Positions 1 through 63,266 of a stretch of DNA of 64,000 nt are shown one piece after another. This DNA is from Gaiellales bacterium. GTDB taxonomy: Bacteria; Actinomycetota; Thermoleophilia; BMS3ABIN01. The position numbers and the translations under genes are program-made. Position 1 is the stretch's first letter. Each line of letters begins with the position of its first letter. The notes beneath the pieces are model-generated. The model was given only the letters and a program-made list of their open reading frames with translations. It did no database searches and was not told the origin of the DNA. The stretch lies in NCBI GenBank assembly GCA_003599855.1, contig QZKG01000067.1, positions 7,647 to 71,646 on the forward strand, written 5' to 3'.

Positions 1-306
1 GCCGCCTTCCTGACCAGCTTCTGCAACAACCTTGCCCGCCCCTCCGTGCGCGGGCTTTCCTCTCTCTGACCAGCCTTTTTCCGGGACAAATGTCCCGTTC
101 TTGACGGGACATACGCCTCTTGTCCCCTCCCAGCCATGGGTTCATCCTTTAAATACCCCCGTGGGGCATATTTCCGTTTTCTTATCCAGAGGGAGGGCGA
201 ATCATTCCCATGAAGACCAAAGGGAGGTGATGTACCAGGGGAGGGCTTGAAATGCGAGACGCAATGTATTTGTGATGAAGGTAAACCCAGAAAGGAAATT
301 GCTGAC

Positions 307-1752
307 ATGAAAGCTACGCGCATTATCCCCGCTTCCATCGGGTTGATAGTAACGCTGATACTGGTGGCCGCGCTCATCTCCATGTCCGGCGTGCCGGCGA
401 CAGCGACATCAGTGGAAGGGACGCTCGTATCCACCCCGGTCGACACAGCGCCGGTGCTTGACGGTATTGCAGATGAGGCAGCCTGGGCCGCTGCCTATGC
501 TACGAACGCGACCGTCAGCGGTGGTTGGTACGGTACGGGAACCGTAAGCATGAAATCGGTCTACAAGGACGGCACCGTTTACTTCCTGTACCAGTACAGC
601 GATCCCGAGAACTCGAACCGCAGGGGCCCCTGGCAGAAGCAGCCTGATGGATCCTGGCTGAAGATCGCCGCTACGCAGTGGCCGGCGCCGGTCTGCCCGC
701 CCGGAGACGCCAGCTGCGAGCAGTACTGGTCCATGAAAGATCCGAACGGCGCCTATGAAGACAAGTTCGCTGTCCTTTGGAACATCAACACCCCGGGCTT
801 CGAGACGGCGGGTTGCGGCATCACCTGCCACTGGGGCATTGACCGCGCCAACGGAAAGTACGGCCGCAAGTACACCAACGCCCCCGGCGAGCTCGTCGAC
901 ATGTGGCACTTCAAGAGCGTCAGGACCGGCCCTGTCGGCCAGACCGACGACCAGTACATCGACAACGCCACCACCGGCAAGGACTGGGGCCGCCATGGCG
1001 ACCCGAACCTCGGCGGCGGTTACAGCGATAACCTGGACTCCAATGGCGATGGCAAGCCCGACTACACGTCGCCGACGCAGCCGGCGCCGCCGTACTACCT
1101 GCTGAAGAGCGAGGAGACGGCGATGGTCGACACCTACGCAGCGGGTGACGAGGTCGCGGCGATCCGCATCGCGGCGCTGACCGGCGACCGCTCCAACCTG
1201 CCCACCGGTTCAAACTATGACGAGACGACCAATACCTGGACGCTGGAGATAGCCCGTCCGCTCGTCACCATGGGTAACGACGGCGTCACCCCCAGCACCA
1301 AGGACGTCCAGTTCACCGACCTCGACTCCGAATACCTCTTCGGCGTGGCGGTGTTCGACAACGCCCAGGTGGAGCACTCGATGTCAGGCCTCTACAAGCT
1401 CACCTTCGCGGAATGCGATAGTCCGTCCCTGGGCCTGTCCAAGTCCGGCGTTTACTGGGCAAGTTACGCCGACTACACGGCGCGTCTGCTGTCGGTCGAC
1501 CTCGGCATCGGTAACAGCGGCGCCGGTGCGGCGACCTCGGCTCAGATCGAAGGCGCGATCAACACCAACGGCGTGACCGTCGTCAGCAGCATGCCTATGG
1601 CGCTCGGCGGGATCGCTGCCGGCAGTAGTGTCGCGGCCACGGTCAAGTACGATGTGCCTGCAGGCGTGTCTTCGTTCAAGACGACGATATACGCCACCGC
1701 CACCGACGCCTGCGGCAACGCGTACAGCTACCCGGGCCCGATGCCGAGCTGA
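307..1752 (+). CDS. secreted haem-binding DOMON/EB_dh-like domain protein
   Basis: ORF 247..1752 opens with TTG; the in-frame ATG at 307 gives a classic signal peptide MKATRIIPASIGLIVTLILVAALISMSGVPATA. The motif TAPVLDGIADEAAWAAA is typical of EB_dh/DOMON (CBM9-like) haem-binding domains. CGITCH is an atypical CX3CH haem-like motif. The C-terminal region is Gly/Ala-rich. Confidence 0.6.
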   Translation: MKATRIIPASIGLIVTLILVAALISMSGVPATATSVEGTLVSTPVDTAPVLDGIADEAAWAAAYATNATVSGGWYGTGTVSMKSVYKDGTVYFLYQYSDPENSNRRGPWQKQPDGSWLKIAATQWPAPVCPPGDASCEQYWSMKDPNGAYEDKFAVLWNINTPGFETAGCGITCHWGIDRANGKYGRKYTNAPGELVDMWHFKSVRTGPVGQTDDQYIDNATTGKDWGRHGDPNLGGGYSDNLDSNGDGKPDYTSPTQPAPPYYLLKSEETAMVDTYAAGDEVAAIRIAALTGDRSNLPTGSNYDETTNTWTLEIARPLVTMGNDGVTPSTKDVQFTDLDSEYLFGVAVFDNAQVEHSMSGLYKLTFAECDSPSLGLSKSGVYWASYADYTARLLSVDLGIGNSGAGAATSAQIEGAINTNGVTVVSSMPMALGGIAAGSSVAATVKYDVPAGVSSFKTTIYATATDACGNAYSYPGPMPS

Positions 1753-5040: not shown

Positions 5041-5799
5041 TTATCCTGTGGTATAGAAGATGTTCGGTTTCGTCCCGGTCTCGGGACGCTGGACCCAGAC
5101 GGCGGCCTCGAGGTCATGCACCCGCTTGTAGACCTCGCTCTGTGGGTCGGAGAGGTCGCCGAAGATGCGCACGCCCGCCGGGCAGGCCTCGGCACAGGCG
5201 GTGAGCGTCTCGCCCTTGCTCAGCCGCGTGTCGTAACAGAAGTTGCACTTGTCCACCGCCATCGTCTCTTCATTGAAGTAGCGGTCGTTGCAGGGGCAGG
5301 CCGACATGCAGGTCTTGCAGCCGATGCACTTGCTCTGGTCCATCATGACGATGCCGTTGGTCTTGTCCTTGTAGGTTGCCTTGGTGGGGCAGGCCCGGAC
5401 GCAGGCCGGGTTGTTGCACTGGTTGCAGAGGACGGGGATGAACTCGACGGTGCGCCCCTCGCTCTCCTCGCTCACGTGCTGTAGTATCCTGGTCCGGTAA
5501 CCATATTCCGGTACATCGTTGGTGCGGGCGCAGGCCTCGACGCAGCGCTCGCAGTCGATGCAGTTGTCCTGCCGGATGACCATGCTGTAATGCGGCTTGT
5601 AGGGGTAGCTCTCAGCGAGCTCCTCGCGCGAGGCGAAGACCTCGTCCACCACCGACACCGCCGACAGCAGCGTCCCCCCGGCGAAGACCCCCGTGATGGC
5701 GAGCCCAATCTTGAGAAAGTCCCGGCGCTCGATATCACTGACGGCCTTGTCGCTTTTCGCCGGCTCCGGCTCCCTGGGAATCCTGGGCGAGCGTTTCAT
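5041..5799 (-). CDS. Tat-exported 4Fe-4S ferredoxin subunit, NrfC/PsrB/HybA-like
   Basis: A twin-arginine signal (RRDFLKIGLAITGVFAGGTLL) and multiple CxxCxxCxxxCP ferredoxin motifs (CIDCERCVEACA, CNQCNNPACVRACP, CIGCKTCMSACP) are present. SD is aaggaggg. Confidence 0.85.
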   Translation of the reverse strand: MKRSPRIPREPEPAKSDKAVSDIERRDFLKIGLAITGVFAGGTLLSAVSVVDEVFASREELAESYPYKPHYSMVIRQDNCIDCERCVEACARTNDVPEYGYRTRILQHVSEESEGRTVEFIPVLCNQCNNPACVRACPTKATYKDKTNGIVMMDQSKCIGCKTCMSACPCNDRYFNEETMAVDKCNFCYDTRLSKGETLTACAEACPAGVRIFGDLSDPQSEVYKRVHDLEAAVWVQRPETGTKPNIFYTTG

Positions 5800-5812
5800 T
5801 GGTCATCCCTCC

Positions 5813-7027
5813 TTAATGGGCTTCGCTTTTATGGCCGCCGAAGACCTTCTCGCCCAGCAGGAAGAGAAAGCCGGTCAGCCCGATTCCGCCCAGCACCACC
5901 ATGATCTCGTGGAAACTCGGCGTGTAACTGAGCAGTCCCGTGTACTCCTTGACTTCGAGCTCGTAGTAGACCGGGACTATCTGGCCGACCACGACCAGGT
6001 CATAGCGCATGAAGAAGATCCCGAATACCATCAGGCCCGAAGCCAGCGCCATCATCCCCAGGTTGGTGCCGCGAGACTTGAGGAAAAGGACCAGCGGTAT
6101 GACCATGCCGACCAGGATCTCCAACACCCAGAAGTTGAAGGCGTAGGGGCCGGTGAGCAGCGACCTGAGCGCCATCACCTTGGCCTCCCCGCCAGCGAAC
6201 CCTATGATGAACTTCCAGGTAGTGAAGAAAAGGATCACGGCGATGAGCAGTATGCCGACCTTGGTGGTGACCTCGAGCGCGCGCTTCATCCCGCTGTCCA
6301 TCTGCTCGCCGTTCACCTTGTAGGCGAGCCAGGTAAAGAGGATGATCGCCGCCGCGCCCGACATCATCGCCGATGTGATGAAGTAGATGGGCATGAAGGG
6401 CCCGTACCAGAACTCGCGCCCGTCGAGCATCCCGAAGACGGCTCCCAGGTTGCTGTGCGCCGCGACACCGGAGACCACCCCCAGGAATCCCAGTAGCGTC
6501 GCCAGCCTGTACCTGCGCTGCACCAGCAGGGTGAACTCGATAGCCATGAACATCATGTAGGCGCCGTAGAGGGTGCCCATCCACCAGATGTTCGAGGTCA
6601 GGTTTGGCGAGATGACGTTGTAGATCGCCATCCGGAGCGGGTTCTCGATCTCGAAGAAGATGACGAAGAAGCCGGAGATGATCGTCGCGACGGCGAGGAA
6701 GACTGACCTCTTGGCGATGGGCGCGTAATCCTTGACGCCGAATACGTGGCCGATGGAAGAGACCAGGCATAGCCCGGTCGACGTTACCACAAAAAAGACA
6801 TACGTAGAAATCAATATGCCCCAGGGGACCTCTCGTGTGACCCCGTAGGCGTGCATGGTGCCGACCGACCGGGCGTGCATCCCTGCTGCGACGCCGGCGA
6901 CTACGAGCAGCGCCATAGCGATGAGCGTGAACAGATAAGCCCTGTTTCTGATGCCGTCGTATACGCCCTCCCACGCAGTCAGCAAGAACGGCGCTTTGGC
7001 TGTTTCCGTTGAGACATTGTCAGCCAT
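5813..7027 (-). CDS. NrfD/PsrC-family polytopic membrane quinol-interacting subunit
   Basis: A 404-aa, roughly 10-TM protein, first in the operon, with a strong SD gagggaggtaa ATG. The NrfD-type call rests on architecture and its pairing with NrfC-like and cytochrome genes; no catalytic molybdopterin subunit is adjacent. Confidence 0.75.
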   Translation of the reverse strand: MADNVSTETAKAPFLLTAWEGVYDGIRNRAYLFTLIAMALLVVAGVAAGMHARSVGTMHAYGVTREVPWGILISTYVFFVVTSTGLCLVSSIGHVFGVKDYAPIAKRSVFLAVATIISGFFVIFFEIENPLRMAIYNVISPNLTSNIWWMGTLYGAYMMFMAIEFTLLVQRRYRLATLLGFLGVVSGVAAHSNLGAVFGMLDGREFWYGPFMPIYFITSAMMSGAAAIILFTWLAYKVNGEQMDSGMKRALEVTTKVGILLIAVILFFTTWKFIIGFAGGEAKVMALRSLLTGPYAFNFWVLEILVGMVIPLVLFLKSRGTNLGMMALASGLMVFGIFFMRYDLVVVGQIVPVYYELEVKEYTGLLSYTPSFHEIMVVLGGIGLTGFLFLLGEKVFGGHKSEAH

Positions 7028-7211
7028 GTTACCTCCCTCGTCACATAAAACACACTGACCCGGTCTCCGGCCGCCCGTCTTCCGTTTTCCCCCATCACCG
7101 GCATCCGGCTGTTGGTAAAAAATCTACCCAACTTGCGCGCGCAATATAATCGGGGGAATGTACCAAAGGGCTAAGGTTTAGTGCCTAGCGGCTATGGGGG
7201 TTTTCCGCAAT

Positions 7212-7315
7212 GGCGTAAGGCAATACCCTAGGGGGTACTAAGGCGTTTCACTGAGTAATCCATGCAGGCGATCCTCCCGCTTCACCCGTTAATCGCCTGC
7301 CGATAACCTTACGCC
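7212..7315. ncRNA. candidate structured RNA / cis-regulatory element (nested perfect helices)
   Basis: Outer 9-bp helix ggcgtaagg (7212-7220) pairs with ccttacgcc (7307-7315). Inner 9-bp helix gcaggcgat (7264-7272) pairs with atcgcctgc (7292-7300). A small hairpin taccc-tagg-gggta lies at 7224-7238. The element sits in a 660-nt ORF-free region upstream of the nrfD-like operon; strand is unknown. Confidence 0.35.
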
Positions 7316-8017
7316 CGACTCGCGGATACAGTTTACTACCTGCAATTGAAGTACTTTTACTGGCAGCCGGACGGCGCCACGACGCATATTGTAATTGGTG
7401 TTATCGTGGTGATAATGAATATTATTACGGTCATGAAAGCTATTATCTTCGCCTTGATTGTGATCCTTTTCTCAGATTTTGACGCTGCAACGTGACAAAG
7501 ACTATCGTTTCGGTATTGTGTGCCGTTTGTATTATATCAATTGATATAGAATTATATATATAGCTTAATCAATATCTGTTTTATGGTGCTCTAATGAATA
7601 TCGACAGTAATTCGACGGCGCTCTCGTGAGTTGCCGATTGGCAATCAGCTGCGCTCACTCACCATCCTGCCGCACTGTGCCAGTGACGCCATCACCCACT
7701 GCGTGTCATGCGGGAGCCGTGCTGGCGCTGATCGGTGACGGGCGCTGTTGCAGCACTATTTTTGCTTGACATATTAAATAAAGCTGGCGAAAGCAGGACG
7801 CTGCCGTGATGAGCAGCAATTTTCCTTGGAGACATGAAGCTGGTGACTGGATGGAAATGATCCGGTGGTTGCTTGACATCCGTGGCCGCAGGCGCGGCCG
7901 CAAACTGGCAAGTCATGTTCGTACGGAGTGTATTGGAGACAGAGCCATTCAGGGGTTTAAAAAAGCGCCGCGGTATTTCACCGCGGCGCCACAATGATTC
8001 CTGCTTTCCTCCCCGTA

Positions 8018-8224
8018 TCAGGAAGCCAGCCTCTCAGCGCTGTCGGTCTCCCACTCGCCTGAGTTCACTCGCTTATCAAAGCAGTTCCTGCAAACGGACT
8101 TGCCGCTGCCGTCCTCGAAACATACATGATAGGCTGCCGTCCCTTCGCAGCCGGGCAGCTTCTCCGTACAGCTGCATTTCTCTTCGACGGGAAAATTACT
8201 GGTGTACTTCACTGTCTTGAGCAT
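8018..8224 (-). CDS. small Cys-rich putative metal-binding protein (paralog A)
   Basis: 68 aa; the motif C..KLPGCE...HVCFEDGSGKSVCRNCFDKRVNSGEW is shared with the ORF at 10211..10429. An SD-like aaagggg precedes the ATG. Confidence 0.55.
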   Translation of the reverse strand: MLKTVKYTSNFPVEEKCSCTEKLPGCEGTAAYHVCFEDGSGKSVCRNCFDKRVNSGEWETDSAERLAS

Positions 8225-8431
8225 TTCGCACCCCTTTGCATCGTTTTACATGTACGCCGGCGTGACCGCGCATGCCGGTCTTTCGCAAATTTAGACGCAA
8301 TATACCCCTGGGGGTTTCATCTTCATGGTTGTGGCCTGACGAATTGCCGGCGTGTCGCCGCTACCCTTTTATCCCGATCGGATGTATAAATCAGATGACG
8401 GCTGGCTTACCCGATCGAGGAAACGGAGGGC

Positions 8432-9409
8432 TTGATGAGGGCCATTATCTATCTGCCGCAGGATGGCGCCGCCAGGGAGGTGCCTGTCAGGGAGGCGCTG
8501 GAAGGCCGCCGGAATGCGGGCGCTCTGCTCTGGCTGGATTGCGGCCATCTGGGAGAGGATGACATGGCACTGCTCAGCGAGGAGTTCGGTTTTCACGAGC
8601 TGGCTCTCGAGGACGCCTTCAAACATCACGAGCAGCGACCCAAGGTCGAAGAGTACGATGACCATTTCTTCCTGGTCATGCACTCGCTCTCAGCCAGGCC
8701 CCAGGGCCAGTCGCTGACGTTCGAAAGGAGCGAGCTCGACCTGTTCGCAGGCGCGGGCTATGTGGTCACGGTCCACCCGGGCGAAGTGCCGGAGCTGGAG
8801 ACCGTCTGGACGGACTCGCTCAAGCGGCCGTCGCTCATGAGCAACGGCTCCGATCGCCTGACCTACCACCTGCTGGACCGGGTAGTGGACAATTACCTGG
8901 AGGCTGTCGACCGGATCGAGGACGTCATCGACTACCTGGAAGACCGCGCAGTCGATGAGAAAGCAAGCGAAGAGGGAATCCGGGAGATCTTCGGCTTCAA
9001 GCGCGAGCTCATCCGCTTCCGCAAGACCAGCGGTCCCCTGCGCGACGCCATCGGCGAACTGACCTCCCTGGACTTCCCCGTAGTAAGCGCGGAAACGATG
9101 CCCTACCTGCGCGACGTTTACGACCACCTAATCCGGCTGGCCGACATGCTCGACACCTACCGGGACATCCTCGGCGGCGCCCTCGACGTCCACCTCGCGG
9201 CTGTGTCCAACCGCCTGAACGAGATCATGAAGCGGCTGACCCTGGTAGCCACCGTCTTCATGCCGCTGACTTTCATCACCGGTTTCTTCGGGATGAACTT
9301 CCTGGAGCTGCCCTTCAGCAGCGCCCTCTGGTTCTGGGGCAGCCTTGTGGTGATGGCCCTGACCGCCTTCTGGATGGTTGATTACTTCCGGCGCAATCAC
9401 TGGCTGTAA
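8432..9409 (+). CDS. corA: magnesium/cobalt transporter CorA
   Basis: The C-terminal two TM helices carry the GMN signature (FFGMNF) and end in YFRRNHWL. The cytoplasmic N-domain is acidic. SD is ggaaacggaggg. Confidence 0.85.
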   Translation: MMRAIIYLPQDGAAREVPVREALEGRRNAGALLWLDCGHLGEDDMALLSEEFGFHELALEDAFKHHEQRPKVEEYDDHFFLVMHSLSARPQGQSLTFERSELDLFAGAGYVVTVHPGEVPELETVWTDSLKRPSLMSNGSDRLTYHLLDRVVDNYLEAVDRIEDVIDYLEDRAVDEKASEEGIREIFGFKRELIRFRKTSGPLRDAIGELTSLDFPVVSAETMPYLRDVYDHLIRLADMLDTYRDILGGALDVHLAAVSNRLNEIMKRLTLVATVFMPLTFITGFFGMNFLELPFSSALWFWGSLVVMALTAFWMVDYFRRNHWL

Positions 9410-27659: not shown

Positions 27660-27857
27660 GACATCACCTTCCCCGCATGCGAAGTACATTCGTCAGGACG
27701 TCTATATATTCCAGCAGAGGAGGTGGTGTCCTGCGGCGACCGCCATTCCCGGCATCATGCTTTTCCGTCCGAACAGCCTGCTACGCTGGTTGACCCGCCG
27801 CTGAAGCGGGGATGACATGTACCTCAGAGATCAGGTTTGGTAAAGGAGGCAGGTCCC

Positions 27858-29801
27858 ATGCTCACCAAGTGGAGGCTTTCAAACTTCAAATGCTTCAAGC
27901 GTGAACACGAGCTCGAACTCGGGCGGCTGACGCTGATCGCCGGCGCCAACAATGCCGGCAAGAGCATGCTGCTCAAGTCGCTCCTGCTCGTCTGCCAGTC
28001 GATGTTCCAGAAGGAAGGCAACGCCGACGTCATCGCCAACGGCCACCTGACCCGGCTGGGCCGGTTGGTCGAGCCTGCTTCTGTTGAGCCGGGGATCGTG
28101 CACGATGCAAGCATGCGCATCGGGTGGGAGTGGCGCCGGGGAAGGCTGGAAGGCGTCCCCGAGCCGGAAGTCTACGATAACCACGGCAACGGCGACCGCA
28201 TCCGCCACAGGAAGGGCGGCCTCGACCTGGACATCGGGTGCGACATCATGATCACGTCGGTGTCTAAGCTGCTGGGACCGTTCACGGTAGCCTCACCGCC
28301 GAGGATAAGCAGCTTCTCGGTCTGGACCGAGCGTCACGGCGATGAGCGGGTTTCACTGTCCGCCTCCAATGATGAGGAAGAGCCCGCAGATGAATCCTGC
28401 CCGGGCTGCGGGCACGCCGGCTGTGACGGCTTGCATGAGGGAGATGCCAGGGGGATGCGGATCACCTGCATCGACGAAAGGTCGGCAGCCGAGCTCGACG
28501 ATGATTTCATCGAGGGAGAGCTTTGCGGCTGCGATTTCCAGGGGCTCCTGCCGGCCGGGCTGCGCGTCCGCTTCGACCGGCGCAAGCAGGCGGCGGCAAT
28601 CGTCGAGCTGGCGCTCCTCAGGGTCGCGGACCCCGCGCTTGCCTATAACCTGCGGCGTATGTCGCGGCACCTGCGCGAACCAATAGAAATACCCGCCGGC
28701 GTCATCGACCGGATCGCGGCTGCCGCCGGGGTCGAGTTTCGCAGGGACGGCACAACGTCTGGAGTGATCAGCATCCTGGAATGGCACCGCGCTGTGGAAC
28801 AGCTCGAAGGCAGCGACCGCGAGGCGCTAGAAGCAGCGACCCGCAGGCTGTTCGCAGATGAGGCCGAGTGGGGCGCCATCGTCTCCGAGATCGAGGCCTC
28901 GGAGGGCCGCGAACTCGAAGAAGACGATGAAACACACCCGCAGATGAGCGATACATCGGTCTGGCTGCCGGGCCCGCTGCGCATGGCGACTGGCTACCTG
29001 AGGGACTACTTCACCAGCATGGTGAAGTACATCGGCCCGCTGAGGCAGTCTCCGCGGCTTTACCACGAGCTGCCGGAACCGGCTGCGGACGGGTATGTCG
29101 GCTCCATGGGCGAGCATGCCATCGCCATCCTCGGCCGCAACCTGGACAGGCGGGTGACGTTCATGCCGCCGGAGAACTTCGACCACCCCGGGATCAAGAT
29201 GGCGGCTAAGGTCACGACGCTGCGCGAGGCGGTGTCGGCATGGCTGGTTCACTTCGGCATGGGAGAGCTGGTCGCGGCTTTCGACGCCGGCAAGCCGGGG
29301 TACGGGTTCCTGCTCAGGTTGCCCGGCTCACGCATGCTGCGCGACCCTGAGAGCGTGGGCGTCGGCATCAGCCAGTTGCTGCCAGTGCTGGTGATGTGCC
29401 TGCTGGCCGAAGAGCACTCGACGCTCATCATCGAGCAGCCGGAGCTGCACCTGCACCCCGGGGCGCAGTCGAAGCTGGGAGATTTCTTCCTGTCGATGGC
29501 GCTCCTGAACAGGCAGTGCATCCTCGAGACGCACAGCGAACACCTGATGGAGCGGGTCAACTACCGCGTGGCGGCCAGCAACGACGCGCTTGTGCCCCTG
29601 GTGAAGAACTATTTCGTCGAGGCGGTCGAGGACGGCTCGGTAGTCGACGAGGCGCCGCTGAACCGCCATCGCAACATCGTCCACTGGCCGGAGGGGTTCT
29701 ACGACGAGGTGCACCGGCAGGAAGAGGCGCTGCTGCGGGTCAGGACCGGCTACGAGCCCGATGCGCTGGCCGGCGAGCACGATCCGGTGAGGAATAACTG
29801 A
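27858..29801 (+). CDS. OLD/ABC-type AAA ATPase (AAA_15/AAA_21-like with DUF3696-like C-terminus) carrying an inserted Cys-cluster region
   Basis: Strong SD aaaggagg 8 nt before the ATG at 27858. N-terminal KWRLSNFKCFK, Walker A GANNAGKS, signature YIGPLRQSPRLYHE, Walker B/D-loop LIIEQPELHLHP and H-loop ETHSEHL. A 350-aa insert between Walker A and IGPLR contains CPGCGHAGCDG...CGCDF. Confidence 0.75.
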   Translation: MLTKWRLSNFKCFKREHELELGRLTLIAGANNAGKSMLLKSLLLVCQSMFQKEGNADVIANGHLTRLGRLVEPASVEPGIVHDASMRIGWEWRRGRLEGVPEPEVYDNHGNGDRIRHRKGGLDLDIGCDIMITSVSKLLGPFTVASPPRISSFSVWTERHGDERVSLSASNDEEEPADESCPGCGHAGCDGLHEGDARGMRITCIDERSAAELDDDFIEGELCGCDFQGLLPAGLRVRFDRRKQAAAIVELALLRVADPALAYNLRRMSRHLREPIEIPAGVIDRIAAAAGVEFRRDGTTSGVISILEWHRAVEQLEGSDREALEAATRRLFADEAEWGAIVSEIEASEGRELEEDDETHPQMSDTSVWLPGPLRMATGYLRDYFTSMVKYIGPLRQSPRLYHELPEPAADGYVGSMGEHAIAILGRNLDRRVTFMPPENFDHPGIKMAAKVTTLREAVSAWLVHFGMGELVAAFDAGKPGYGFLLRLPGSRMLRDPESVGVGISQLLPVLVMCLLAEEHSTLIIEQPELHLHPGAQSKLGDFFLSMALLNRQCILETHSEHLMERVNYRVAASNDALVPLVKNYFVEAVEDGSVVDEAPLNRHRNIVHWPEGFYDEVHRQEEALLRVRTGYEPDALAGEHDPVRNN

Positions 29802-30292: not shown

Positions 30293-30340
30293 GCAGATAG
30301 TCATATAGACCCGTTTGCGTATGGCTGATAGTATTTGAAC

Positions 30341-32272
30341 ATGTCTAATGAATCCACTCAATCGGGCTGGAGCTCCGACTTTCCCACATTCCGCGACAGC
30401 CAGCCTTATCGGATACGAGAAGATCTTCATTCTTTTGTATCCGACGTTAGCCCCGAACAGATTCGAGCGTGGGATGAGTCTATCCCTCTATTGCAAAATG
30501 AGGTGGATGAAGTATTGCAAACAACTGATTTAGCGCAGAAATACGACACAATTTTAGAGTACGAACTACCCATGGAGTCCCGCCGCACGGATGCCATATT
30601 TCTGACCTCAGCCGGCGTTATCGTTATCGAGCTGAAGGGAAAAAGCAACCCCTCCCGGGCTGATATTGACCAGGCGGCTGCGTATGGACGCGACCTTCGC
30701 TGCTATCATCGCGAATGTCATAACCGACCTGTCCATGCAGTTCTCGTTCCGACGAGGGCGAAGGGTTATATGTTTCAGAAGTCGGGCGTTCATGTGCTTG
30801 GTCCTGATGTCATCGATAAGTTCGTGGACGATATTAGAATGAAGGGTGGGCAAGAACCAATCGACAGGAATTCATTTTTATCGGCAGATGCATATTGCCC
30901 TCTCCCAACAATAGTGGAAGCTGCACGCGAACTGATGATGTCTGGATCGATACGAACAATTCACAGGGCTCGAGCAGCTACTGAGCCGGCTCTTGAAGAA
31001 ATATCCCGAATCATTCATGAAGCAGCCTTGACCAAAACACGTCGCTTGGTTCTGCTAACTGGTGTTCCGGGTGCCGGGAAGACGCTTGTCGGTCTACAAG
31101 TCGTCCACGCTCACTTCTTGGATGACCTGTCCATCCCCAGGGCTGATGGAAATAGCGGCACACCGGCAGTTTATTTGTCTGGCAACGGCCCCTTAGTACA
31201 AGTTCTCCAATATGAGCTGAAAAGTGCTGGAGGCGGCGGTCGTACCTTTGTAAGAGGAGTTAAAGACTATGTGAAACGATATTCAACCAGGGCTGACCTG
31301 GTTCCGCCGGAGCACGTATTGGTTTTTGATGAAGCCCAAAGGGCTTTTGACGCTGACCAGGTACGAGAGAAGCATAGCAATACTCCCGGATTTGAAGGCG
31401 GAAAATCTGAGCCAGAACACTTCATCGAGTTTGCCGAAAGAATCCCGGAGTGGTGTGTGGTAGTTGGACTTATTGGTGGTGGTCAAGAAATTCACATTGG
31501 AGAGGAAGCCGGAATCGTTCAATGGCTGCAGGCAATTGAAGGATCGGCAGATCCCTCTGCGTGGACCATCCACATGCCTCCCGAAGCCAAACCTGCCTTC
31601 GCTGATTCCCAGGTTAAACAAACTGCATCACCGGCTTTGAATTTAGATACGGAAATCCGCTTTCATCTGGCTAGCGAGCTTCATGATTTCGTCGCAGACC
31701 TGCTTGATAGTCGCGATATTGAGAGTAATCGGGAGCGTGCTCTCAGACTGGAAGCAGATGGCTATCATCTCAGAATCACGCGAGACTTGAATGTGGCGAA
31801 ATCATATCTAAGGGAGCGCTATGGTGAAGACCCTGACGCACGCTTTGGTCTTATCGCATCTTCTAAGGACAAAGATTTAACCAGATTTGGCATCCTCAAT
31901 GATTTCCAATCGACAAAAAGAGTCAGATTTGGCCCCTGGTACGGAGACAGGGAGGACGACGAGGGCCATTTTTCTTGCCGGCATCTTGATGCATGTATTA
32001 CAGAATTTGGCGCACAGGGGCTAGAGCTTGATGCCGTATTGCTAGCGTGGGGCACGGACTTGCTCAGAGAAGATGGAGCGTGGTCGAACGAAAGAGCTCG
32101 CGGATATCGCAATAGCAGTAGGATAAAAGACGCTTTTCAGCTACGGCTAAATGCTTACCGCGTCCTCCTCACCCGCGGCCGGGACGCAACTGTTGTTTTC
32201 GTGCCACAACTGGAACTACTAGACGATACATTCAATTATCTAGTTGATAGTGGATTCTTACCCCTTGCTTAG
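30341..32272 (+). CDS. PD-(D/E)xK (NERD-like) nuclease domain fused to DUF2075 / Schlafen-group-3-like SF1 helicase ATPase
   Basis: N-terminal nuclease motif RRTDAIFLTSAGVIVIELKGK (D...ExK). Walker A LLTGVPGAGKTLVGL, motif II VLVFDEAQRAF and a motif VI-like VLLTRGRDATVVFV. Visibly lower GC than its neighbours. Confidence 0.8.
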   Translation: MSNESTQSGWSSDFPTFRDSQPYRIREDLHSFVSDVSPEQIRAWDESIPLLQNEVDEVLQTTDLAQKYDTILEYELPMESRRTDAIFLTSAGVIVIELKGKSNPSRADIDQAAAYGRDLRCYHRECHNRPVHAVLVPTRAKGYMFQKSGVHVLGPDVIDKFVDDIRMKGGQEPIDRNSFLSADAYCPLPTIVEAARELMMSGSIRTIHRARAATEPALEEISRIIHEAALTKTRRLVLLTGVPGAGKTLVGLQVVHAHFLDDLSIPRADGNSGTPAVYLSGNGPLVQVLQYELKSAGGGGRTFVRGVKDYVKRYSTRADLVPPEHVLVFDEAQRAFDADQVREKHSNTPGFEGGKSEPEHFIEFAERIPEWCVVVGLIGGGQEIHIGEEAGIVQWLQAIEGSADPSAWTIHMPPEAKPAFADSQVKQTASPALNLDTEIRFHLASELHDFVADLLDSRDIESNRERALRLEADGYHLRITRDLNVAKSYLRERYGEDPDARFGLIASSKDKDLTRFGILNDFQSTKRVRFGPWYGDREDDEGHFSCRHLDACITEFGAQGLELDAVLLAWGTDLLREDGAWSNERARGYRNSSRIKDAFQLRLNAYRVLLTRGRDATVVFVPQLELLDDTFNYLVDSGFLPLA

Positions 32273-32331: not shown

Positions 32332-33930
32332 CTACCCCTCCCTCATGCCCATCGGCAGGTTCAAGAGCCAGAGGTTGACGGCGGCGAACGCCACCATCAG
32401 CACCAGCATCGGCGCGAGGCCGGCGATGGTGCGCATGCTGTCGCCGAAGGTCTGCCGGGCGGCGCGCCACCCCACGTACACCGCAGCGACGTAGCCGATG
32501 AGCACCATCGTCATCTGCAGGAAGCGCAGCGGCTCCATGCCCAGGAGCGGTATCGTCGTCACGTTCGCGGTGCCGAAGAGGTTCCAGCCCCAGCCGAAGG
32601 GGTCCGAGAGCACCGGCACTACCGCGGCCCCCTCCTCGAAGAAGTGGACCAGGTTGTGGGCCAGGTGAGAGGTCAGGGCTATCGGCAGGAACGCGAAGGA
32701 GAACGCGATGAAGACGGACTTGAGGCTGGCGCCCTTGCCGCCCACCCTCGTGGTTATCCACGACCAGAGGCTGAAGATCAGCATCGGCGCCAGCACCGCC
32801 AGCACGATATAGCTTAAGGTCAGCACGGTCTGCTCGCCGAGCCCGGTGGCATTCGCCATTGCCGCCGAGGCGTCGGTCCAGGGCTCGACCATGTCGAGGG
32901 TCTGGAAAACCGTCACCCCCAGAAGGATAACGACGATGGCCGCCACGTCGAAACCGACCTTGCGCGTTTTCCAGAGGTCGCTGAGGAAGGGGCGGGCGTT
33001 CAGGGCGATGTTGTCATTGGGGCAGGTCTTGACGCACTCGGTGCAGAGGACGCAGTAGATGTTGGTGTCCATCTTCTGCGGCCACTCGAACATCGGGCAG
33101 CCGTAGCCCTTGTCGCTCCCCTTGTAGCACGCCTTCTCCCGGCAGGACTGGCAGACGCCGGTGTCGCGGACGCGCAGTTCCAGCGGCGCCGTCATAGAGT
33201 AGGCGCCGATGATCCCGCCGATGGGGCAGACGTAACGGCAGAAGGTGCGCCGCTCGAACAACAGCGAGACCACGATGGCGGGAACGATGAAGAGCCCCAG
33301 CGTCACCACCGCCGTGTACAGCGGGTTGCTCGCCAGGCCCAGGAAGAGGTACATCCAGGTGAGGATGATGAAGAACGCCGTCGGCACCCAGAAGTTCCGC
33401 AGCCGGCGCGGCCACTTGCGGTTCATGCTGAAGACGCGGCGCCCGACCCCCCACAGCTTGCCCCGCTGCAGCCATTCGGCGAAGGAGACGAGGGGACAGG
33501 CCATACACCAGGTGCGTGACAGCAGGAGGAAGGTGAAGATGATGACCGCCCACCAGATGAGCCAGGTGATGACGGTGGCGAAGTTGCGGTCCCCCGCCTG
33601 CGTGCCCCAGATGCCGGCGGCGACCACCAGCGCGAAGATGAGCGCGTTGGGCAGCTGCACGGCGAACTGGAACGCCCGGTGCCGCAGCAAGCGGTAGACA
33701 AGCGGCAGGCGCAGCAGGTCGTAGCGGTGCCTGGTGCCGGCGGCGCCGGACTCCAGGACGGTGCCGCCATCGATGTCCTGCAGCAACTCCGCCTGTTTCC
33801 GGGCCCGGCGCGCGAGCAGCCAGACCATGAGCGGCGTCACGATAAGGATGATGATCAGATAGGGGATCAGCAGCGAGAACTCCCAGCCGCCTCCTGCTGC
33901 GGGTGCCGCGCCATGAGCATGGTGGTCCAT
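32332..33930 (-). CDS. NapH/MauN/FixG-like polytopic membrane protein with 4Fe-4S ferredoxin domain
   Basis: TM-embedded CxxCP motifs (WCMACPLVSF, FCRYVCPIGGIIG) and a ferredoxin cluster region CQSCREKACYKG...CVLCTECVKTCPNDNI. Paralogous to 48504..49859. Confidence 0.7.
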   Translation of the reverse strand: MDHHAHGAAPAAGGGWEFSLLIPYLIIILIVTPLMVWLLARRARKQAELLQDIDGGTVLESGAAGTRHRYDLLRLPLVYRLLRHRAFQFAVQLPNALIFALVVAAGIWGTQAGDRNFATVITWLIWWAVIIFTFLLLSRTWCMACPLVSFAEWLQRGKLWGVGRRVFSMNRKWPRRLRNFWVPTAFFIILTWMYLFLGLASNPLYTAVVTLGLFIVPAIVVSLLFERRTFCRYVCPIGGIIGAYSMTAPLELRVRDTGVCQSCREKACYKGSDKGYGCPMFEWPQKMDTNIYCVLCTECVKTCPNDNIALNARPFLSDLWKTRKVGFDVAAIVVILLGVTVFQTLDMVEPWTDASAAMANATGLGEQTVLTLSYIVLAVLAPMLIFSLWSWITTRVGGKGASLKSVFIAFSFAFLPIALTSHLAHNLVHFFEEGAAVVPVLSDPFGWGWNLFGTANVTTIPLLGMEPLRFLQMTMVLIGYVAAVYVGWRAARQTFGDSMRTIAGLAPMLVLMVAFAAVNLWLLNLPMGMREG

Positions 33931-47430: not shown

Positions 47431-47634
47431 TCAGTGGGCCGCATGTTCTTCGCATTCATGGGCCTTCTTGTGATGACCCTTATGCTTGCCCTTGCCCTTG
47501 CAGTGTCCGTAATGGTTGCCAGGGGGGCACTTGCACTCCGTCACAGTTCCCACCGCCCCGGGATCGCTGCCAGTCTCGCTGGCAAACGCCACGCCGGTGA
47601 GCGGCGCCGCAAACATGGTCACAACCGCAATCAT
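47431..47634 (-). CDS. small secreted His/Lys-rich protein (putative metal-binding)
   Basis: Signal peptide MIAVVTMFAAPLTGVAFA, then ...CKCPPGNHYGHCKGKGKHKGHHKKAHECEEHAAH. The ORF track extends it to 47700. Confidence 0.45.
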   Translation of the reverse strand: MIAVVTMFAAPLTGVAFASETGSDPGAVGTVTECKCPPGNHYGHCKGKGKHKGHHKKAHECEEHAAH

Positions 47635-47965
47635 GGTAATCGCCAATAGTCGTCTCACTTCTTCCTCCTGAGGTCCGGCCGTCCGCAGGACAGCCAACAT
47701 ACATTACAACGGCAATTATGTGCCCCCGACATGAAGGATCTGTGTAGCTCCGGTTAAGAACAGGCTAAGAAATCAGGAATCCATCGTTTTTCACTGACGG
47801 TCCGAAGGTTGCGCGAGGCCTGAATTTTAACGGACTCTTAATACTTGCGTATAACTGAAACGGCCGGAAAAGGGTATCATTTCATAGAAGGTTCGAATCG
47901 CTTGCGCCCTGCGCCCGCGGGACGACTTCCTGACTGGTTCATTCGGATATGGATGGAGTATGCCC

Positions 47966-48466
47966 ATGACAGAATCACGGGATGATGCAATTTTTCGGCA
48001 GCGCCTCGCCCGGCTCCGTACCGGTTCATCAGCTGCCCTGGTGACAATAGCAATGTTGCTGCTGGTATTGCTGGCGACGGGCTGTAGTGAAGATGCGGCC
48101 ACGACCTCGACGGTGGCCGACCTTTCCACCCCCGAAGGCGGCAGGCTCGAACTGAAGGAGACAAGTCACGACTTCGGCAAGGTGCCGGTGGGTGAAACGG
48201 TCACCCATTCTTTCGAGGTGAGGAACAGCGGTGACGGACCCCTGCGGCTGGGTGAGCTCGAGGTCAAGCGCCTGGAGGGATGCTGAAGCGCCGATGCGGT
48301 CGTGGGTTCCACGACCCTGGCGCCCGGCGAGACCACCAGCCTCGACGTGACCATACACATGGGCAAGGGCATGGGCGGCGTGCATGTCTTTGAGATCACT
48401 ATCCCCTCCAACGATCCCGGAGCGGTGAACAACAAGGTCCAGGCGCGCGTCGATTTCATCGAATAG
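47966..48466 (+). CDS. DUF1573-like lipoprotein interrupted by an in-frame TGA (candidate selenoprotein, or pseudogene)
   Basis: Lipobox LLATGC and DUF1573-like HDFGKVPVGETVTHSFEVRNSGDGPLRL...LEGC[TGA 48284-48286]SADAVVGSTTLAPGETTSLDV...NDPGAVNNKVQARVDFIE. The reading frame is unchanged across the TGA. Confidence 0.5.
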
Positions 48467-48503: not shown

Positions 48504-49859
48504 GTGAACGGACAAACCGAGAAGATCGGCGTCGATAACGGCGCCGGAAGAGGCGGCATCGACAGGCTCCTCTACTGGCGCCGCTATCCGGCGTCGCTGC
48601 ACGCCGCCTTCTACCTGATGCTGGCCGTCCTGGTGTTCTTCGCTTTCTACCCGCCGCGCCAGGCAGAAGGCAACCTCGCCACCGAGGTGGTCTGGAAGCT
48701 CTGGTGGCCGGGGCTGTCATTCCTGCTGCTGGCGGCCGGGCGCGTCTGGTGCGGCGTCTGCCCCTTCGGGGGCCTTTCCGACCTGGCCGCCAGGCTCCGC
48801 CGCCCGCGCCATGCGCCGCCCGGAGTCATCCGCAAGGCCGGCCCGTGGCTCGGGGTCGTTTCCGTCTTCCTCTTCGGCATCGCCTTTCTGGCCCTGGGGC
48901 TGGAAGGCAACGCCGCCGCCACGGGGGTCATCCTCGTGGGGATGGCGGCGCTGGCGTTCGGCCTCTCCCTCGCCTGGAAGGGCAGGAACTTCTGCCGCTA
49001 CCTCTGCCCCATCGGCATGATCACCCGGGTCTATTCCTTTTTCTCCTGGATGCGCGTGCGGGGCGGTGGCGGCCGGCGGCCGGCGATGGCCTGCCCGGTC
49101 GGGCAGTCGCCCGCCAGCCTCAGGCAGCCGAGCCAGTGCCATCTCTGCGGCGCCTGCACCAAGGGGGGCAGCGCCGGGGTCAGGACTTTTACCGGTTTCG
49201 CCGGCGCGCGCCTGCCCGCCCGCACCGAGTTCGGCCGGGTCGAGGCCACCCTCTCCATCGTCATGCTGGGCCTGATGGCGGCGGATTCGGTGCGCATGAC
49301 CCCCCTGTTCGCCCGCTACCAGCGGGGCGCACTGCCCTGGTTCGGCTTCAATTACCGCCTGTCGGTGATCGTCGGCGTAGCTGCTCTCACCGCGCTGCTG
49401 CTGGCGTCGTTCGCCCTCGCCTCCCGCCTGCTGGCCCGCCGCCCGGGGGGAGCGGAGAGCGTCTTCCGCTCGCTCGGCTTCTCGCTGCTGCCGCTGACTT
49501 TCGGCGTTTTCATGGCGCTGGCGCTCCAGCACCTCTGGTCCGGGGCCTGGCCTTCACTGCAGACCATCGCCGCTGAGTCCCGGCTGCTGGACTGGACGGG
49601 CCACATGCCGCCCGAGGATGTCTACTTCGTCAGCATCCCGTTGAAGATCATCCAGTTCGTCTTTCTCGCCGTGGGGCTGGGCTGGTCCCTGCGGCTGGCC
49701 GACCGTACACTGCAACCAGGCCGGGAGAAGCCGGGCCCGGTACCGCTCGAGGTCGCACCGCACAAGTCAGGTGCCACCTCGCTCAAACGTCCGGTCATAC
49801 TGCTGGCGGCAGGCGGGATCAGTTTCCTCTTCCTGCTGCCCATGAGCGGCGCCTGTTGA
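48504..49859 (+). CDS. NapH/FixG-like polytopic membrane protein with CxxCP FeS motifs (paralog of 32332..33930)
   Basis: Motifs WCGVCPFGGLSD, FCRYLCPIGMI and CHLCGACTKGG lie within roughly 10 TM. Confidence 0.65.
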   Translation: MNGQTEKIGVDNGAGRGGIDRLLYWRRYPASLHAAFYLMLAVLVFFAFYPPRQAEGNLATEVVWKLWWPGLSFLLLAAGRVWCGVCPFGGLSDLAARLRRPRHAPPGVIRKAGPWLGVVSVFLFGIAFLALGLEGNAAATGVILVGMAALAFGLSLAWKGRNFCRYLCPIGMITRVYSFFSWMRVRGGGGRRPAMACPVGQSPASLRQPSQCHLCGACTKGGSAGVRTFTGFAGARLPARTEFGRVEATLSIVMLGLMAADSVRMTPLFARYQRGALPWFGFNYRLSVIVGVAALTALLLASFALASRLLARRPGGAESVFRSLGFSLLPLTFGVFMALALQHLWSGAWPSLQTIAAESRLLDWTGHMPPEDVYFVSIPLKIIQFVFLAVGLGWSLRLADRTLQPGREKPGPVPLEVAPHKSGATSLKRPVILLAAGGISFLFLLPMSGAC

Positions 49860-49884
49860 CAAAATGATAAGGGAGTCACCCAGG

Positions 49885-50322
49885 ATGAAACGATTTATTT
49901 TGATGAGCAGGCAACGCGTCCTGCTGCTGGCAATCGCGGCGATCGCCCTTGCCGTTATCTCAGCCGGCGGTTGCGGCGAGGAGGCCGGCGACGTGGAGTT
50001 CCCCGAGTTCGTTTACCGCTCGGAGGAATCCCTGGAGGGGTACAGGATCGCCGCGGCCAACCAGGATGTGCTCGAGCAGATTCCCTGCTATTGCGGCTGC
50101 GAGCGGGACAGGGAGAAGTATCAGAACCTCAAGGACTGCTTCTACAACCGCGAGACGGGAGACTTCGACGAGCATGCCGCCAGTTGCGCCATCTGCCTGG
50201 AGGAGGCCCGGGACGTGGAGCAGTGGCAGGACGAGGGCCTTTCGCTGAAAGAGATCAGGGACCGGATCGACGAGAAGTACCAGGACCGCGGCACACCCAC
50301 CGATACGCCGCCGGTCGAGTGA
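49885..50322 (+). CDS. PCYCGC-motif lipoprotein
   Basis: Signal plus lipobox (VISAGGCG), the conserved IPCYCGCERD motif and an additional CAIC pair. SD is aagggag. Confidence 0.65.
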   Translation: MKRFILMSRQRVLLLAIAAIALAVISAGGCGEEAGDVEFPEFVYRSEESLEGYRIAAANQDVLEQIPCYCGCERDREKYQNLKDCFYNRETGDFDEHAASCAICLEEARDVEQWQDEGLSLKEIRDRIDEKYQDRGTPTDTPPVE

Positions 50323-50498
50323 GCCTGCCGCTTCTGGCAGCCCGTATCTGATGTTCCTGGTGCGGCCCCTGTGATGCTAAAAAAAGGTATGGTGTCACCG
50401 GTATCGTGCCGGTTTTCAGGTAAGGCGCGGTCGTCCCTTCCGTCCGGGCAAATGTGTATAATTTGCGTTCCAGCCAACAGGGGAAAACAGGAGTGGTG

Positions 50499-50864
50499 AT
50501 GGCAACAGTAGTGAAGGCGTCCGAGCAGAAGGTGTACCGCGGCCCCGAGGACGGGCGCTCGCGCATGCTGATTCACCCGGGCATGGGGGCGAGAAACCTC
50601 AGCCTGGGTTCGATGGTGTTCCCCGTGGGCGGCCGCACCGCCCCGCATACCCGCGAGACCGAAGAAGTGATCTTCGTCGTCCGCGGTCGGACGGCGATCC
50701 ATATCGCCGGCGAGGCGCACGAACTCGAGGCCGGCGACGCCATCTACATCCCGCCGGGCACCGAGCACTATCACGAGAACATCGGCGATGAAGAACTGGA
50801 GCACGTCTGGGTCTTCTCGCCCCAGGGCCCGGAACAGCTGTTCTACGGCATGGAGACAGAATAG
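50499..50864 (+). CDS. cupin domain protein
   Basis: Cupin motifs GGRTAPHTRETEEVIFVVRGRTAIHIAGEAHELEAGDAIYIPPGTEHYHEN. SD is aggagtgg. Confidence 0.65.
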   Translation: MATVVKASEQKVYRGPEDGRSRMLIHPGMGARNLSLGSMVFPVGGRTAPHTRETEEVIFVVRGRTAIHIAGEAHELEAGDAIYIPPGTEHYHENIGDEELEHVWVFSPQGPEQLFYGMETE

Positions 50865-62150: not shown

Positions 62151-62644
62151 GCAGCGCCGGCGCCATTGACGAGCTGTACGAGAAACTCGATCGCGAGGCG
62201 CGGGAGGGCGGCTACCACCTCAACCCCGACCGTGAGTTCACCCGCGAGCTGGTGGAAGGGCTCGCCGCGAACCAGGAGCGCTTCGGCTACATGGCCTGTC
62301 CCTGCCGCCTGGCTGACGGCGAGCGCGCCCGGGACCTCGACATCATCTGCCCCTGTTACTACCGCGACCCCGATCTGGCCGAGTACGGCCAGTGCTATTG
62401 TGCCCTGTATGTCTCAGAGGCGGTGGTAGAGGGCGAGGCCGGCACCGGTCCGATACCCGAGCGGCGGCCGGAAGGCGGCGTCCCCGCCGAGCCTTCCGGC
62501 GAGCCGGCCGGCGCCCCTGGCGGCAGCCTGTCAAAACCGGTCTGGCGCTGCCGGGTCTGTGGCTACCTCTGCGGCCGCGACGAGCCCCCGGAGCACTGTC
62601 CCATCTGCGGCGCCGACAGCGACCGCTTCGAACGCTTCATGTAG
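62147..62644 (+). CDS. ferredoxin:thioredoxin reductase catalytic-subunit-like protein fused to a C-terminal rubredoxin-like domain
   Basis: FTR-C Cys pattern YMACPCRLADGERARDLDIICPCYYRDPDLAEYGQCYCALYV. Pro/Gly-rich linker. Rubredoxin-like WRCRVCGYLC...HCPICGA. The start overlaps the glutaredoxin stop by 4 nt. Confidence 0.75.
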   Translation: MSSAGAIDELYEKLDREAREGGYHLNPDREFTRELVEGLAANQERFGYMACPCRLADGERARDLDIICPCYYRDPDLAEYGQCYCALYVSEAVVEGEAGTGPIPERRPEGGVPAEPSGEPAGAPGGSLSKPVWRCRVCGYLCGRDEPPEHCPICGADSDRFERFM

Positions 62645-62651
62645 GCACGCC

Positions 62652-63266
62652 ATGGGCAGGAACAAGGATGACTCCCGCTGGGAGGAGATGTACCAGGCCC
62701 ATGATGTGGAGACGATGCCCTGGTACCTGCCCGGTCTCGACCCGGATTTCGAGGAAGCCCTGGAAAACCACTCCATCGGCCCAGGCAAGGCGCTTGACCT
62801 CTGCACCGGTCCGGCGACACAGGCGATGGCCCTGGCCGAACTCGGCTTCGACGTCTTCGCCACCGACATCTCGGAGACAGCGGTACGCCTGGCTGCGCAA
62901 AAGGCGAAGCTGAAAGGGCTCGAGATATCGTTCCGGCAGGCGGACATCCTCAGGGACGACCTTGGCGGGGAGTTCGACCTGCTGCTCGACCGGGGCTGCT
63001 TCCACGTCTTTGAGCCGGGGCAGCGCGGGATGTACGTGGATGCCGTGGACCAGCTGTTAAGACCGGGGGGTTACCTGCTGCTGAAGTGCTTCAGCCACCG
63101 GGAGAAACGACGGGAGGGCCCTTACCGGTTCACGCCGGAAGAGCTGGGCGGCTATTTTTCCGGTGTGCTCAAGGTGCTCTCGATCAGGGATGCCGTCTTC
63201 AAGGGCACACTGGAACATTACCCGAAAGCCCTTTTCTGCGTAATGAGGAAACCGGGGCGTCAATAA
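62652..63266 (+). CDS. class I SAM-dependent methyltransferase (TehB/TPMT-like)
   Basis: The internal ATG lies 8 nt after the FTR-like stop. Motif I ALDLCTGPATQAMALAELGFDVFATDISETAV and motif II LLLDRGCFHV are present. Confidence 0.7.
   Translation: MGRNKDDSRWEEMYQAHDVETMPWYLPGLDPDFEEALENHSIGPGKALDLCTGPATQAMALAELGFDVFATDISETAVRLAAQKAKLKGLEISFRQADILRDDLGGEFDLLLDRGCFHVFEPGQRGMYVDAVDQLLRPGGYLLLKCFSHREKRREGPYRFTPEELGGYFSGVLKVLSIRDAVFKGTLEHYPKALFCVMRKPGRQ

Follow-up and report, generated by a model that had tools for sequence, protein, structure and literature searches.

The stretch of DNA considered here, which we call the window, comprises 64,000 nucleotides (nt) of contig QZKG01000067.1 from a Gaiellales bacterium (Thermoleophilia, Actinomycetota), with a G+C content of 63%. 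On its forward strand lies a reading frame that begins with an ATG at 47960 or 47966, runs through ...LEVKRLEGC to an in-frame TGA at 48284-48286, and then stays open for 59 further codons, SADAVVGSTTLAPGE...VDFIE, to a TAG at 48464-48466. Exactly 11 nt past the TGA starts the hairpin GGTCGTG-GGTTC-CACGACC (48298-48316, forward strand). If the UGA is read as selenocysteine (Sec), the complete selenoprotein gene would extend from 47966 (alternative start 47960) to 48466 on the forward strand, encoding a prolipoprotein of 166 or 168 codons; the part up to the TGA is by itself an N-terminal open reading frame (ORF; 47966-48286, forward strand) that ends LEGC-TGA. The ATG at 47966 is the likelier start, because a GGAG that we read as Shine-Dalgarno-like (47955-47958, forward strand) lies 7 nt before it and only 1 nt before the ATG at 47960.

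Both sides of the TGA are covered by the same domain matches: with the stop written as Cys, PF22544 matches residues 62-155 (52 bits), and DUF1573 (PF07610) matches residues 63-152, at 40.8 bits against a cutoff of 26.1. The genetic code is not reassigned, since TGA is the usual stop for 34 of the 56 predicted genes of the window. Among these 34 TGA-terminated genes, the present one is the only one to combine a coding-like in-frame extension (G+C of 0.83 at third and 0.44 at second codon positions) with a hairpin of the type of the selenocysteine insertion sequence (SECIS). An earlier note on this DNA had described the unbroken frame, the homology on both sides of the TGA and the hairpin 11 nt downstream, and had likened the latter to the fdhF-type SECIS of E. 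coli; these observations were all borne out, and the likeness holds when spacing, loop G/U and stem length are measured by the published consensus.

The hairpin folds into an 8-base-pair (bp) Watson-Crick stem, GGUCGUGG/CCACGACC, with an apical GUU triloop (alternatively 7 bp with the loop GGUUC), at -12.5 kcal/mol by itself and -32.7 kcal/mol (z = -2.26) in a 71-nt context, and its apical loop lies 19 nt from the UGA. The consensus for bacterial SECIS elements comprises a loop of 3-9 nt, a stem of 4-16 bp, a G in loop position 1-2, a distance of 16-37 nt from the UGA and a minimum free energy of at most -7.5 kcal/mol (PMC13188914); the element satisfies it with a loop of GUU or GGUUC, 8 bp, 19 nt and -12.5 kcal/mol. 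When all 2013 TGA triplets in the window are considered, 223 (11%) pass a loose version of the SECIS criteria, and for 15 (0.7%) there is a perfect stem of at least 7 bp at an allowed spacing. The shape of the hairpin is thus by itself moderately unusual, and it is the comparative evidence that is decisive. With a covariance model of the element, 48298-48316 scores 80.6 bits, while the next best site in the window, at 63076, reaches 21 bits and lies out of frame inside a methyltransferase gene; neither this model nor scans for in-frame TGA codons found a second selenoprotein gene in the window. A search of Rfam with the hairpin gave no match, as expected. A role as a terminator was considered and rejected, as no T-run follows the hairpin and it is located inside a conserved coding frame; two longer hairpins after other TGA-ended genes of the window, with stems of 12-13 bp, do sit at gene ends and are terminator-like. 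We also note a possible lower helix (GCGCCG...CGGCG) flanking the stem (48287-48331; columns 11-16 and 48-52 of alignment A4), which is present in the window clade, broken in the related loci L017, L018 and L039, and probably not required.

In 11 distinct sequences, the stem is paired in 88 of 88 cells (100%), and four of its eight pairs show compensatory changes on both sides: G-C to U-A in L005, C-G to U-A in L037, L038 and L040, U-A to C-G in L036, and G-C to A-U in L039. None of 500 shuffles was as good as the real stem, and structures slid by 1-3 columns were only 37-52% paired. The codons that form the stem are GCG GTC GTG GGT TCC ACG ACC. Three of its pairs connect a third codon position with another third codon position, and all three covary; the fourth covarying pair changes Val to Ala and Thr to Ala together, altering two amino acids (aa) with the pair kept, so the RNA has shaped the peptide A-V-V-G-S-T-T as well. 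Of the hairpin codons (+4 to +11), 5 of 7 are invariant at their fourfold-degenerate site, compared with 3 of 27 elsewhere (Fisher p = 0.0035), and the loop G-G-U, with its fourfold-degenerate Gly codon GGU, is invariant in all 11 sequences. This pattern of substitutions shows that the RNA stem itself is under selection.

Queried with the read-through protein, a word-indexed search gave four proteins of 101-103 aa, each with ...LEGC at its end; their contigs include three NCBI metagenome-assembled genomes (MAGs) labelled Thermoleophilia bacterium. Assemblies that carry the gene include the Thermoleophilia MAGs GCA_054642275.1, GCA_054607135.1 and GCA_054604235.1, together with MAGs of the locus-tag prefixes ACYC6B, ACYCXF and IBX61. 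On the contigs of the four close relatives the TGA stands at the same codon, a 54-aa ORF is called 15 nt further on, and the downstream genes are alike. A metagenome scan added two orthologues of ~60% identity (L017 and L018), again with the TGA. Next, 1.84 billion cluster representatives were searched exhaustively with HMMER, using a profile built on the N-terminal fragments. With giant multi-repeat proteins set aside, this gave 14 single-domain representatives of 84-116 aa; all 14 end in (R/L/M)LEGC, with a match that reaches both the last position of the profile and their own C-terminus, and for the 5 with DNA, the TGA and the conserved continuation were confirmed. The corresponding profile of the C-terminal half found 62 clusters (at 90% identity) in 5.8 billion proteins, all of them post-TGA fragments of 35-75 aa; only 3 of the 62 carry an organism name, and all three are Thermoleophilia MAGs. 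None of the 62 clusters contained a full-length protein with a sense codon at the TGA position, and neither profile search found a Cys-containing full-length form among close relatives. In total, 12 loci with DNA have the TGA at this very codon, just after a TGC (the loci listed for this comparison being the window, L001-L006, L017, L018 and L036-L041). A scan of GTDB representative genomes yielded only distant DUF1573 proteins of the CGC type and giant Ig-repeat proteins, and no orthologue. Alignment of orthologues had been proposed in the earlier note as a check on the Sec reading, and with the same TGA in 12 loci and a hairpin fully paired in 11 sequences, it comes out in favour of that reading.

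In public records, the gene is split. One of the 62 C-terminal matches is identical to the 54-aa ORF of the window and lies on the near-identical JGI (Joint Genome Institute) metagenome contig Ga0104756_1000346, where the gene (L042, 9752-10165) is annotated as two ORFs of 77 and 54 aa; in the Thermoleophilia MAGs the split is into 103 and 54 aa. The first part is called "Ig-like domain-containing protein" (~100 aa) or is a truncated DUF1573 ORF, and the second is a 54-aa "hypothetical protein"; no selenocysteine is flagged in the JGI annotation or in that of the MAGs by NCBI's PGAP pipeline (L042, L001 3853-4344, P0003, P0179, P0187, P0189). For the window's own N-terminal ORF (start 47960 or 47966) no database record was found. 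The gene is thus mis-annotated as two small ORFs in all public records that we examined.

The two halves of the frame evolve in a similar manner. The 110-codon domain aligns without insertions or deletions (indels) in all sequences and with a shared stop, although pairwise synonymous divergence (dS) is near or beyond saturation, at 0.8-2.4. The ratio of nonsynonymous to synonymous divergence (dN/dS) is 0.09-0.37 after the TGA, hairpin codons excluded, and 0.13-0.45 before it. The downstream half, judged from these substitution rates, is translated and under purifying selection; a low dN/dS at saturated dS, in combination with the shared stop and the lack of indels, excludes a pseudogene as well as an assembly error.

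These data bear directly on how the TGA is to be understood. Seen in the window alone, a TGA within a domain has the look of a nonsense mutation, and public annotation does read it as a stop. The earlier note had named a recently inactivated gene as one of its two readings; in that case the TGA would be a nonsense mutation, or else an error of sequencing or assembly, and the frame after it would be decaying. This is refuted by the conservation of TGA, frame, stop and hairpin across synonymously saturated lineages, together with purifying selection on the 59 downstream codons. The same TGA is present in 12 independently assembled loci and implied in ~76 protein clusters, and a single misassembled template behind all contigs is excluded by protein identities of 45-65%, so that we regard inactivation as extremely improbable. 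One might also see two genes at the locus, a half-domain lipoprotein that stops at the TGA and a 54-aa peptide re-initiated at the GTG at 48302, with the hairpin serving translational coupling or mRNA stability; gene callers do find this GTG-started ORF 15 nt past the TGA in most loci. However, the Ig-like domain match spans the TGA (residues 62-155), and neither of the halves is by itself a folding unit. The GTG moreover belongs to the stem and has become GCG in L036, where no start is left; it is not preceded by a Shine-Dalgarno sequence; and codons +2 and +4, between TGA and GTG, are kept as Ala with synonymous variation. We consider the two-gene explanation very improbable.

A different kind of alternative accepts the read-through and questions the residue: the hairpin might, independently of selenium, help a near-cognate tRNA (for Trp, Cys or Arg) to decode the UGA. 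What conservation and covariation prove is that the hairpin is functional and that the UGA is read through; they do not tell which residue is inserted. The negative outcome of the search for Sec machinery favours this alternative and weighs against the Sec reading, as do several further points. No selA, selB, selD or tRNA-Sec was found in the 64-kb window or in the loci fetched for comparison: ARAGORN, run on the window and 8 loci, reported 0 tRNAs, and Pfam scans of 45 window ORFs gave no SelA, SelB or SelD. Literature searches gave nothing on whether Thermoleophilia or Conexibacter use Sec. No Cys homologue aligned to the Sec was found, and there is thus no classical Sec/Cys pair, which is usual for selenoproteins though not obligatory. 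Finally, the recoding is predicted here from comparison of DNA and protein sequences. On the other side, the hairpin has bacterial SECIS geometry, with a stem that starts after 11 nt and an apical G-G-U that is retained in 11 of 11 sequences; the UGA stands beside a conserved Cys in a redox/metal motif region; the superfamily has Sec members; and if the product contained Cys or Trp, a sense codon would be expected in some of the ~76 clusters, where none was found. Selenium-independent read-through is thus improbable in our view. The precedent that both DUF1573/OS_HP2 and PCYCGC/OS_HP4 are catalogued selenoprotein families supports the Sec reading as well. We are confident of the recoding, with Sec as the most probable residue, and we think it very likely that the explanation as a whole is correct, i.e. 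that the UGA at 48284-48286 encodes selenocysteine, with a conserved hairpin assisting its decoding, in an exported lipoprotein of Thermoleophilia-type actinobacteria. SelB and Sec-tRNA would be the decoding agents, given the SECIS-type geometry, the conserved adjacent Cys and the lack of a sense codon in ~76 clusters.

The predicted protein starts with a signal peptide (47966-48085, forward strand, by inspection), which has a basic n-region, a hydrophobic core and the lipobox L-A-T-G-C. The Cys that would be lipidated is encoded by TGT at 48083-48085 and is Cys42 when counted from 47960. It is invariant; inspection finds an [A/S/E/V]-[G/A]-C lipobox after a hydrophobic stretch in 10 of 10 aligned full-length sequences and in 13 of 13 further N-terminal fragments, which points to an exported lipoprotein. 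Every member has one Ig-like domain. Some of the invariant landmarks of the clade (E-T-x-Y/H-D-F-G-x-V-P and N-x-G) are of the generic DUF1573/ASH type; also invariant are L105-E-G-C-U109 and the loop M134-G-x-G-M-G-G-x-H142. The former contains the putative vicinal Cys108-Sec109 dyad, encoded by TGC-TGA (48281-48286, forward strand), which is identical in 12 loci. The latter is a Met/His-rich loop, H-M-G-K-G-M-G-G-V-H in the window (48356-48385, forward strand; alignments A5 and A7), in which M134, G135, G137, M138, G139, G140 and H142 are invariant in the clade; it is an insertion that ordinary DUF1573 proteins do not have, and its side chains are candidate soft-metal ligands. From the usual strand order of such sandwiches, the dyad loop and the Met/His loop would be expected together at one end of the domain. 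The best solved structural relative, 2qsv_A (E = 1e-4), has a gap at the LEGCU segment.

The position of the dyad relative to the Cys motif of the superfamily needs some care. The earlier note had placed the TGA at the CGC motif of DUF1573 proteins, giving a Cys-Sec dyad. When the clade is aligned with ordinary DUF1573 proteins using MAFFT, G107-C108 align with the G-C of CGC; the Sec, however, follows the second Cys by one residue and replaces neither, and the first Cys is absent. Where ordinary members carry C-G-C after the N.G..PL strand, the clade has L-E-G-C-U, and in distant DUF1573 proteins the Sec aligns with the residue that comes next to CGC on its C-terminal side, in most cases Thr or Val.

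Just downstream of the selenoprotein gene, after a 38-nt gap and probably in the same operon, the window encodes a polytopic membrane protein with two CxxxCP Fer4_5 motifs (48504-49859, forward strand; PF12801, E = 5e-11). It is NapH/MauN-like, with weak matches to these families (22 bits against cutoffs of 213-234). The gene is found at the same position in L001-L004, L006 and L017, but it is not beside the selenoprotein gene in L018, L036, L039 and L040. It is followed by a lipoprotein of the PCYCGC family (OS_HP4/CYCXC; 49864-50322, forward strand) in its Cys form (PF13798, 83.3 bits; NF041379, 72.9 bits with a cutoff of 90), whose gene also follows that for the Fer4_5 protein in L001-L004 and L017; the PCYCGC/OS_HP4 family is catalogued as one with selenoprotein members. 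A Cupin_2 protein (50454-50864, forward strand), at the same position in L001-L004 and L042, marks the end of the conserved block. A second, larger Fer4_5 membrane protein of 532 aa, a paralogue, is encoded elsewhere in the window (32332-33930, reverse strand), with no DUF1573-like or PCYCGC gene beside it.

On the other side of the selenoprotein gene, and divergent from it, lies a gene for a small secreted Cys/His-rich protein (47431-47700, reverse strand; ...ECKCPPGNHYGHC..HKGHHKKxHxCE.H). This Cys/His/Lys-rich protein is conserved on the reverse strand in three further loci, L001 (3305-3523), L005 (872-1087) and L006 (3-224), with the pattern ...ECKCPxGNHYGHC..HKGHHKKGHxCEEH. Its sole library match is a weak one to the acid-shock protein Asr (E = 0.005), and it is probably metal-binding. 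The more distant members of the clade have a different neighbour, namely an opposite-strand J-domain gene that follows the selenoprotein gene and encodes ~95 aa (93-102) with a C-terminal FWRxFWREGLSGLSR tail (L017 8217-8525, L018 592-876, L036 3534-3818 and L040 2699-2992, all reverse strand, and also L041); in L018, L036 and L040/L041 its length is 93-97 aa. Next to it stand Rrf2-family regulators with a three-Cys motif (L017 8729-9265, L018 1104-1580 and L036 4089-4562, reverse strand). In L017, the Fer4_5 and PCYCGC genes are retained as well. The J-domain/Rrf2 arrangement may be the ancestral neighbourhood.

Based on these features, we can sketch how the gene might work. With the UGA held in the ribosome, the hairpin 11 nt further on would offer its apical loop, G-GUU-C, to the Sec-specific elongation factor SelB in complex with Sec-tRNA(Sec); Sec would be inserted at 48284-48286, and translation would then continue through 59 codons to the TAG at 48464. 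The resulting prolipoprotein of ~166 aa would be cleaved, lipidated at Cys42 and tethered to the outer face of the cytoplasmic membrane. The mature product would consist of one Ig-like beta-sandwich of the DUF1573/ASH type that displays the L-E-G-Cys-Sec dyad and the Met/His loop (HMGxGMGGxH). As its likeliest function, we suggest that the Cys-Sec pair may act as an extracytoplasmic selenenylsulfide redox centre and/or as a site for soft metals of the Cu(I)/Hg(II) type. In some lineages, that of the window included, it would cooperate with, or be fed by, the products of the next two genes, the NapH-like Fer4_5 membrane protein and the PCYCGC lipoprotein. The lack of a Cys form, the thioredoxin reductase-like G-C-U on a cell-surface scaffold and the Cys-rich neighbours (PCYCGC, Fer4_5 and the Cys/His peptide) all fit a putative extracytoplasmic redox or metal function. 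What speaks against this part of the explanation is that the Fer4_5/PCYCGC adjacency exists in some lineages only (the window clade and L017), with J-domain/Rrf2 genes in others; the neighbourhood is not fixed, and as a hint at function it is suggestive only. We thus put forward the specific redox or metal function tentatively. More doubtful still is the idea of an obligate-selenium family, in which the dyad and the Met/His loop together form an extracytoplasmic soft-metal or selenenylsulfide centre that has no Cys counterpart in ~5.8 billion predicted proteins; if it were true, this would imply chemistry beyond the reach of cysteine, and exported selenoproteins and the Sec trait would be regular in Thermoleophilia.

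Several other genes in the window deserve mention. A methyltransferase of the TPMT/TehB type that would use S-adenosylmethionine (62559-63266, forward strand; PF05724, E = 2e-12; PF03848, E = 4.5e-08) is encoded 14 kb from the selenoprotein gene; in other bacteria this type of family is associated with tellurite resistance and with selenium and tellurium methylation. The segment 27837-32272, which encodes an AAA_15/AAA_21 ATPase (27837-29801) and a helicase of the Schlafen-group-3/DUF2075 type (30335-32272), has a lower third-position G+C than its surroundings and looks like an acquired defence-type island. Near the start of the window there is a protein with an ethylbenzene-dehydrogenase-like haem domain (EB_dh; 247-1752, forward strand), followed by a 4Fe-4S dicluster protein and an NrfD-type membrane subunit (5041-7027, reverse strand) with no molybdopterin catalytic subunit nearby. 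The adjoining 1.4 kb, from 7027 to 8432, contain no convincing ORF.

In one sense, the present gene is one more computational selenoprotein prediction in a superfamily with known Sec members, and it does not introduce a new principle. It does provide a compact and well-supported SECIS example of an RNA signal that shapes protein sequence, in which two amino acids have changed to preserve one base pair, and it comes from Thermoleophilia, a poorly studied class of actinobacteria.

The closest known system is OS_HP2, predicted as a selenoprotein in Olavius symbionts by Zhang & Gladyshev 2007 (PMC1976440). In the Global Ocean Sampling (GOS) analysis it is described as pfam07610 with the motif UxC, 2 Sec forms and 354 Cys forms (PMC2398784), and recent catalogues list a "DUF1573 domain-containing protein, UGC" (PMC9312934, PMC13188914). 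OS_HP2 (PF07610, NF041425) and the present clade share the Ig-like domain, the Sec in the Cys-motif segment after the N.G..PL strand and a SECIS immediately downstream. All 10 clade members tested give sub-threshold matches to NF041425, with a best E of 4e-13 and, for the window protein, 40 bits against the curated cutoff of 100; no other NCBIfam selenoprotein model matched the clade proteins. There are several differences. The clade has G-C-U where OS_HP2 has U-G-C, with Sec at the first position, and this first Cys position is not conserved in the clade; it also has a 2-residue insertion (L-E) and the extra Met/His loop. Its hosts are Thermoleophilia (Actinomycetota) as opposed to deltaproteobacterial symbionts and marine samples, and it lacks a close Cys form, in contrast to the 354 Cys homologues of OS_HP2 in the GOS data. 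A 2026 review counts 119 bacterial selenoprotein families and subfamilies and, where the position or motif of Sec differs among proteins of one architecture, assigns them to separate subfamilies (PMC13188914). By this rule the predicted clade is a new subfamily, an uncatalogued Gly-Cys-Sec branch of the DUF1573 superfamily that adds to the bacterial selenoproteome. The claim of the earlier note for a new exported selenoprotein should be read in this way: the conserved TGA, frame and hairpin support the selenoprotein, while "new" has to be qualified, as DUF1573/OS_HP2 was already catalogued (PMC1976440, PMC2398784, PMC13188914).

The hairpin can be compared to the E. coli fdhF SECIS and the consensus model, with which it shares a stem-loop 11 nt past the UGA and a small apical loop that begins with G and then G/U. 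It differs from the fdhF element in having no bulged U, in its loop, which is G-GUU-C here and GGUC in fdhF, and in a lower helix that is weakly conserved. With respect to the dyad, the adjacent Cys-Sec after a Gly is in line with other vicinal Cys-Sec proteins. Mammalian thioredoxin reductase has a C-terminal GCUG that forms a redox-active selenenylsulfide, and L005 likewise reads G-C-U-G. Bacterial families with a CU motif (SaoL, SaoC, SaoB, HgcA, MbdU, KCU-star and Csac_0668) are linked to metal or organometallic chemistry (PMC13188914, Table 1). Unlike in all of these, the dyad of the present clade is internal and placed on a lipid-anchored Ig-like sandwich, an unrelated fold, and there is no sequence homology; the NCBIfam models for those families give no match. 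The NapH/MauN/NosR-type Fer4_5 membrane proteins are electron conduits that serve partners outside the cytoplasm; for the Cys-Sec protein, such electron transfer would be conjecture. The downstream gene resembles them in having two CxxxCP motifs in a polytopic membrane protein, but it scores far under the family cutoffs and is not always adjacent to the selenoprotein gene.

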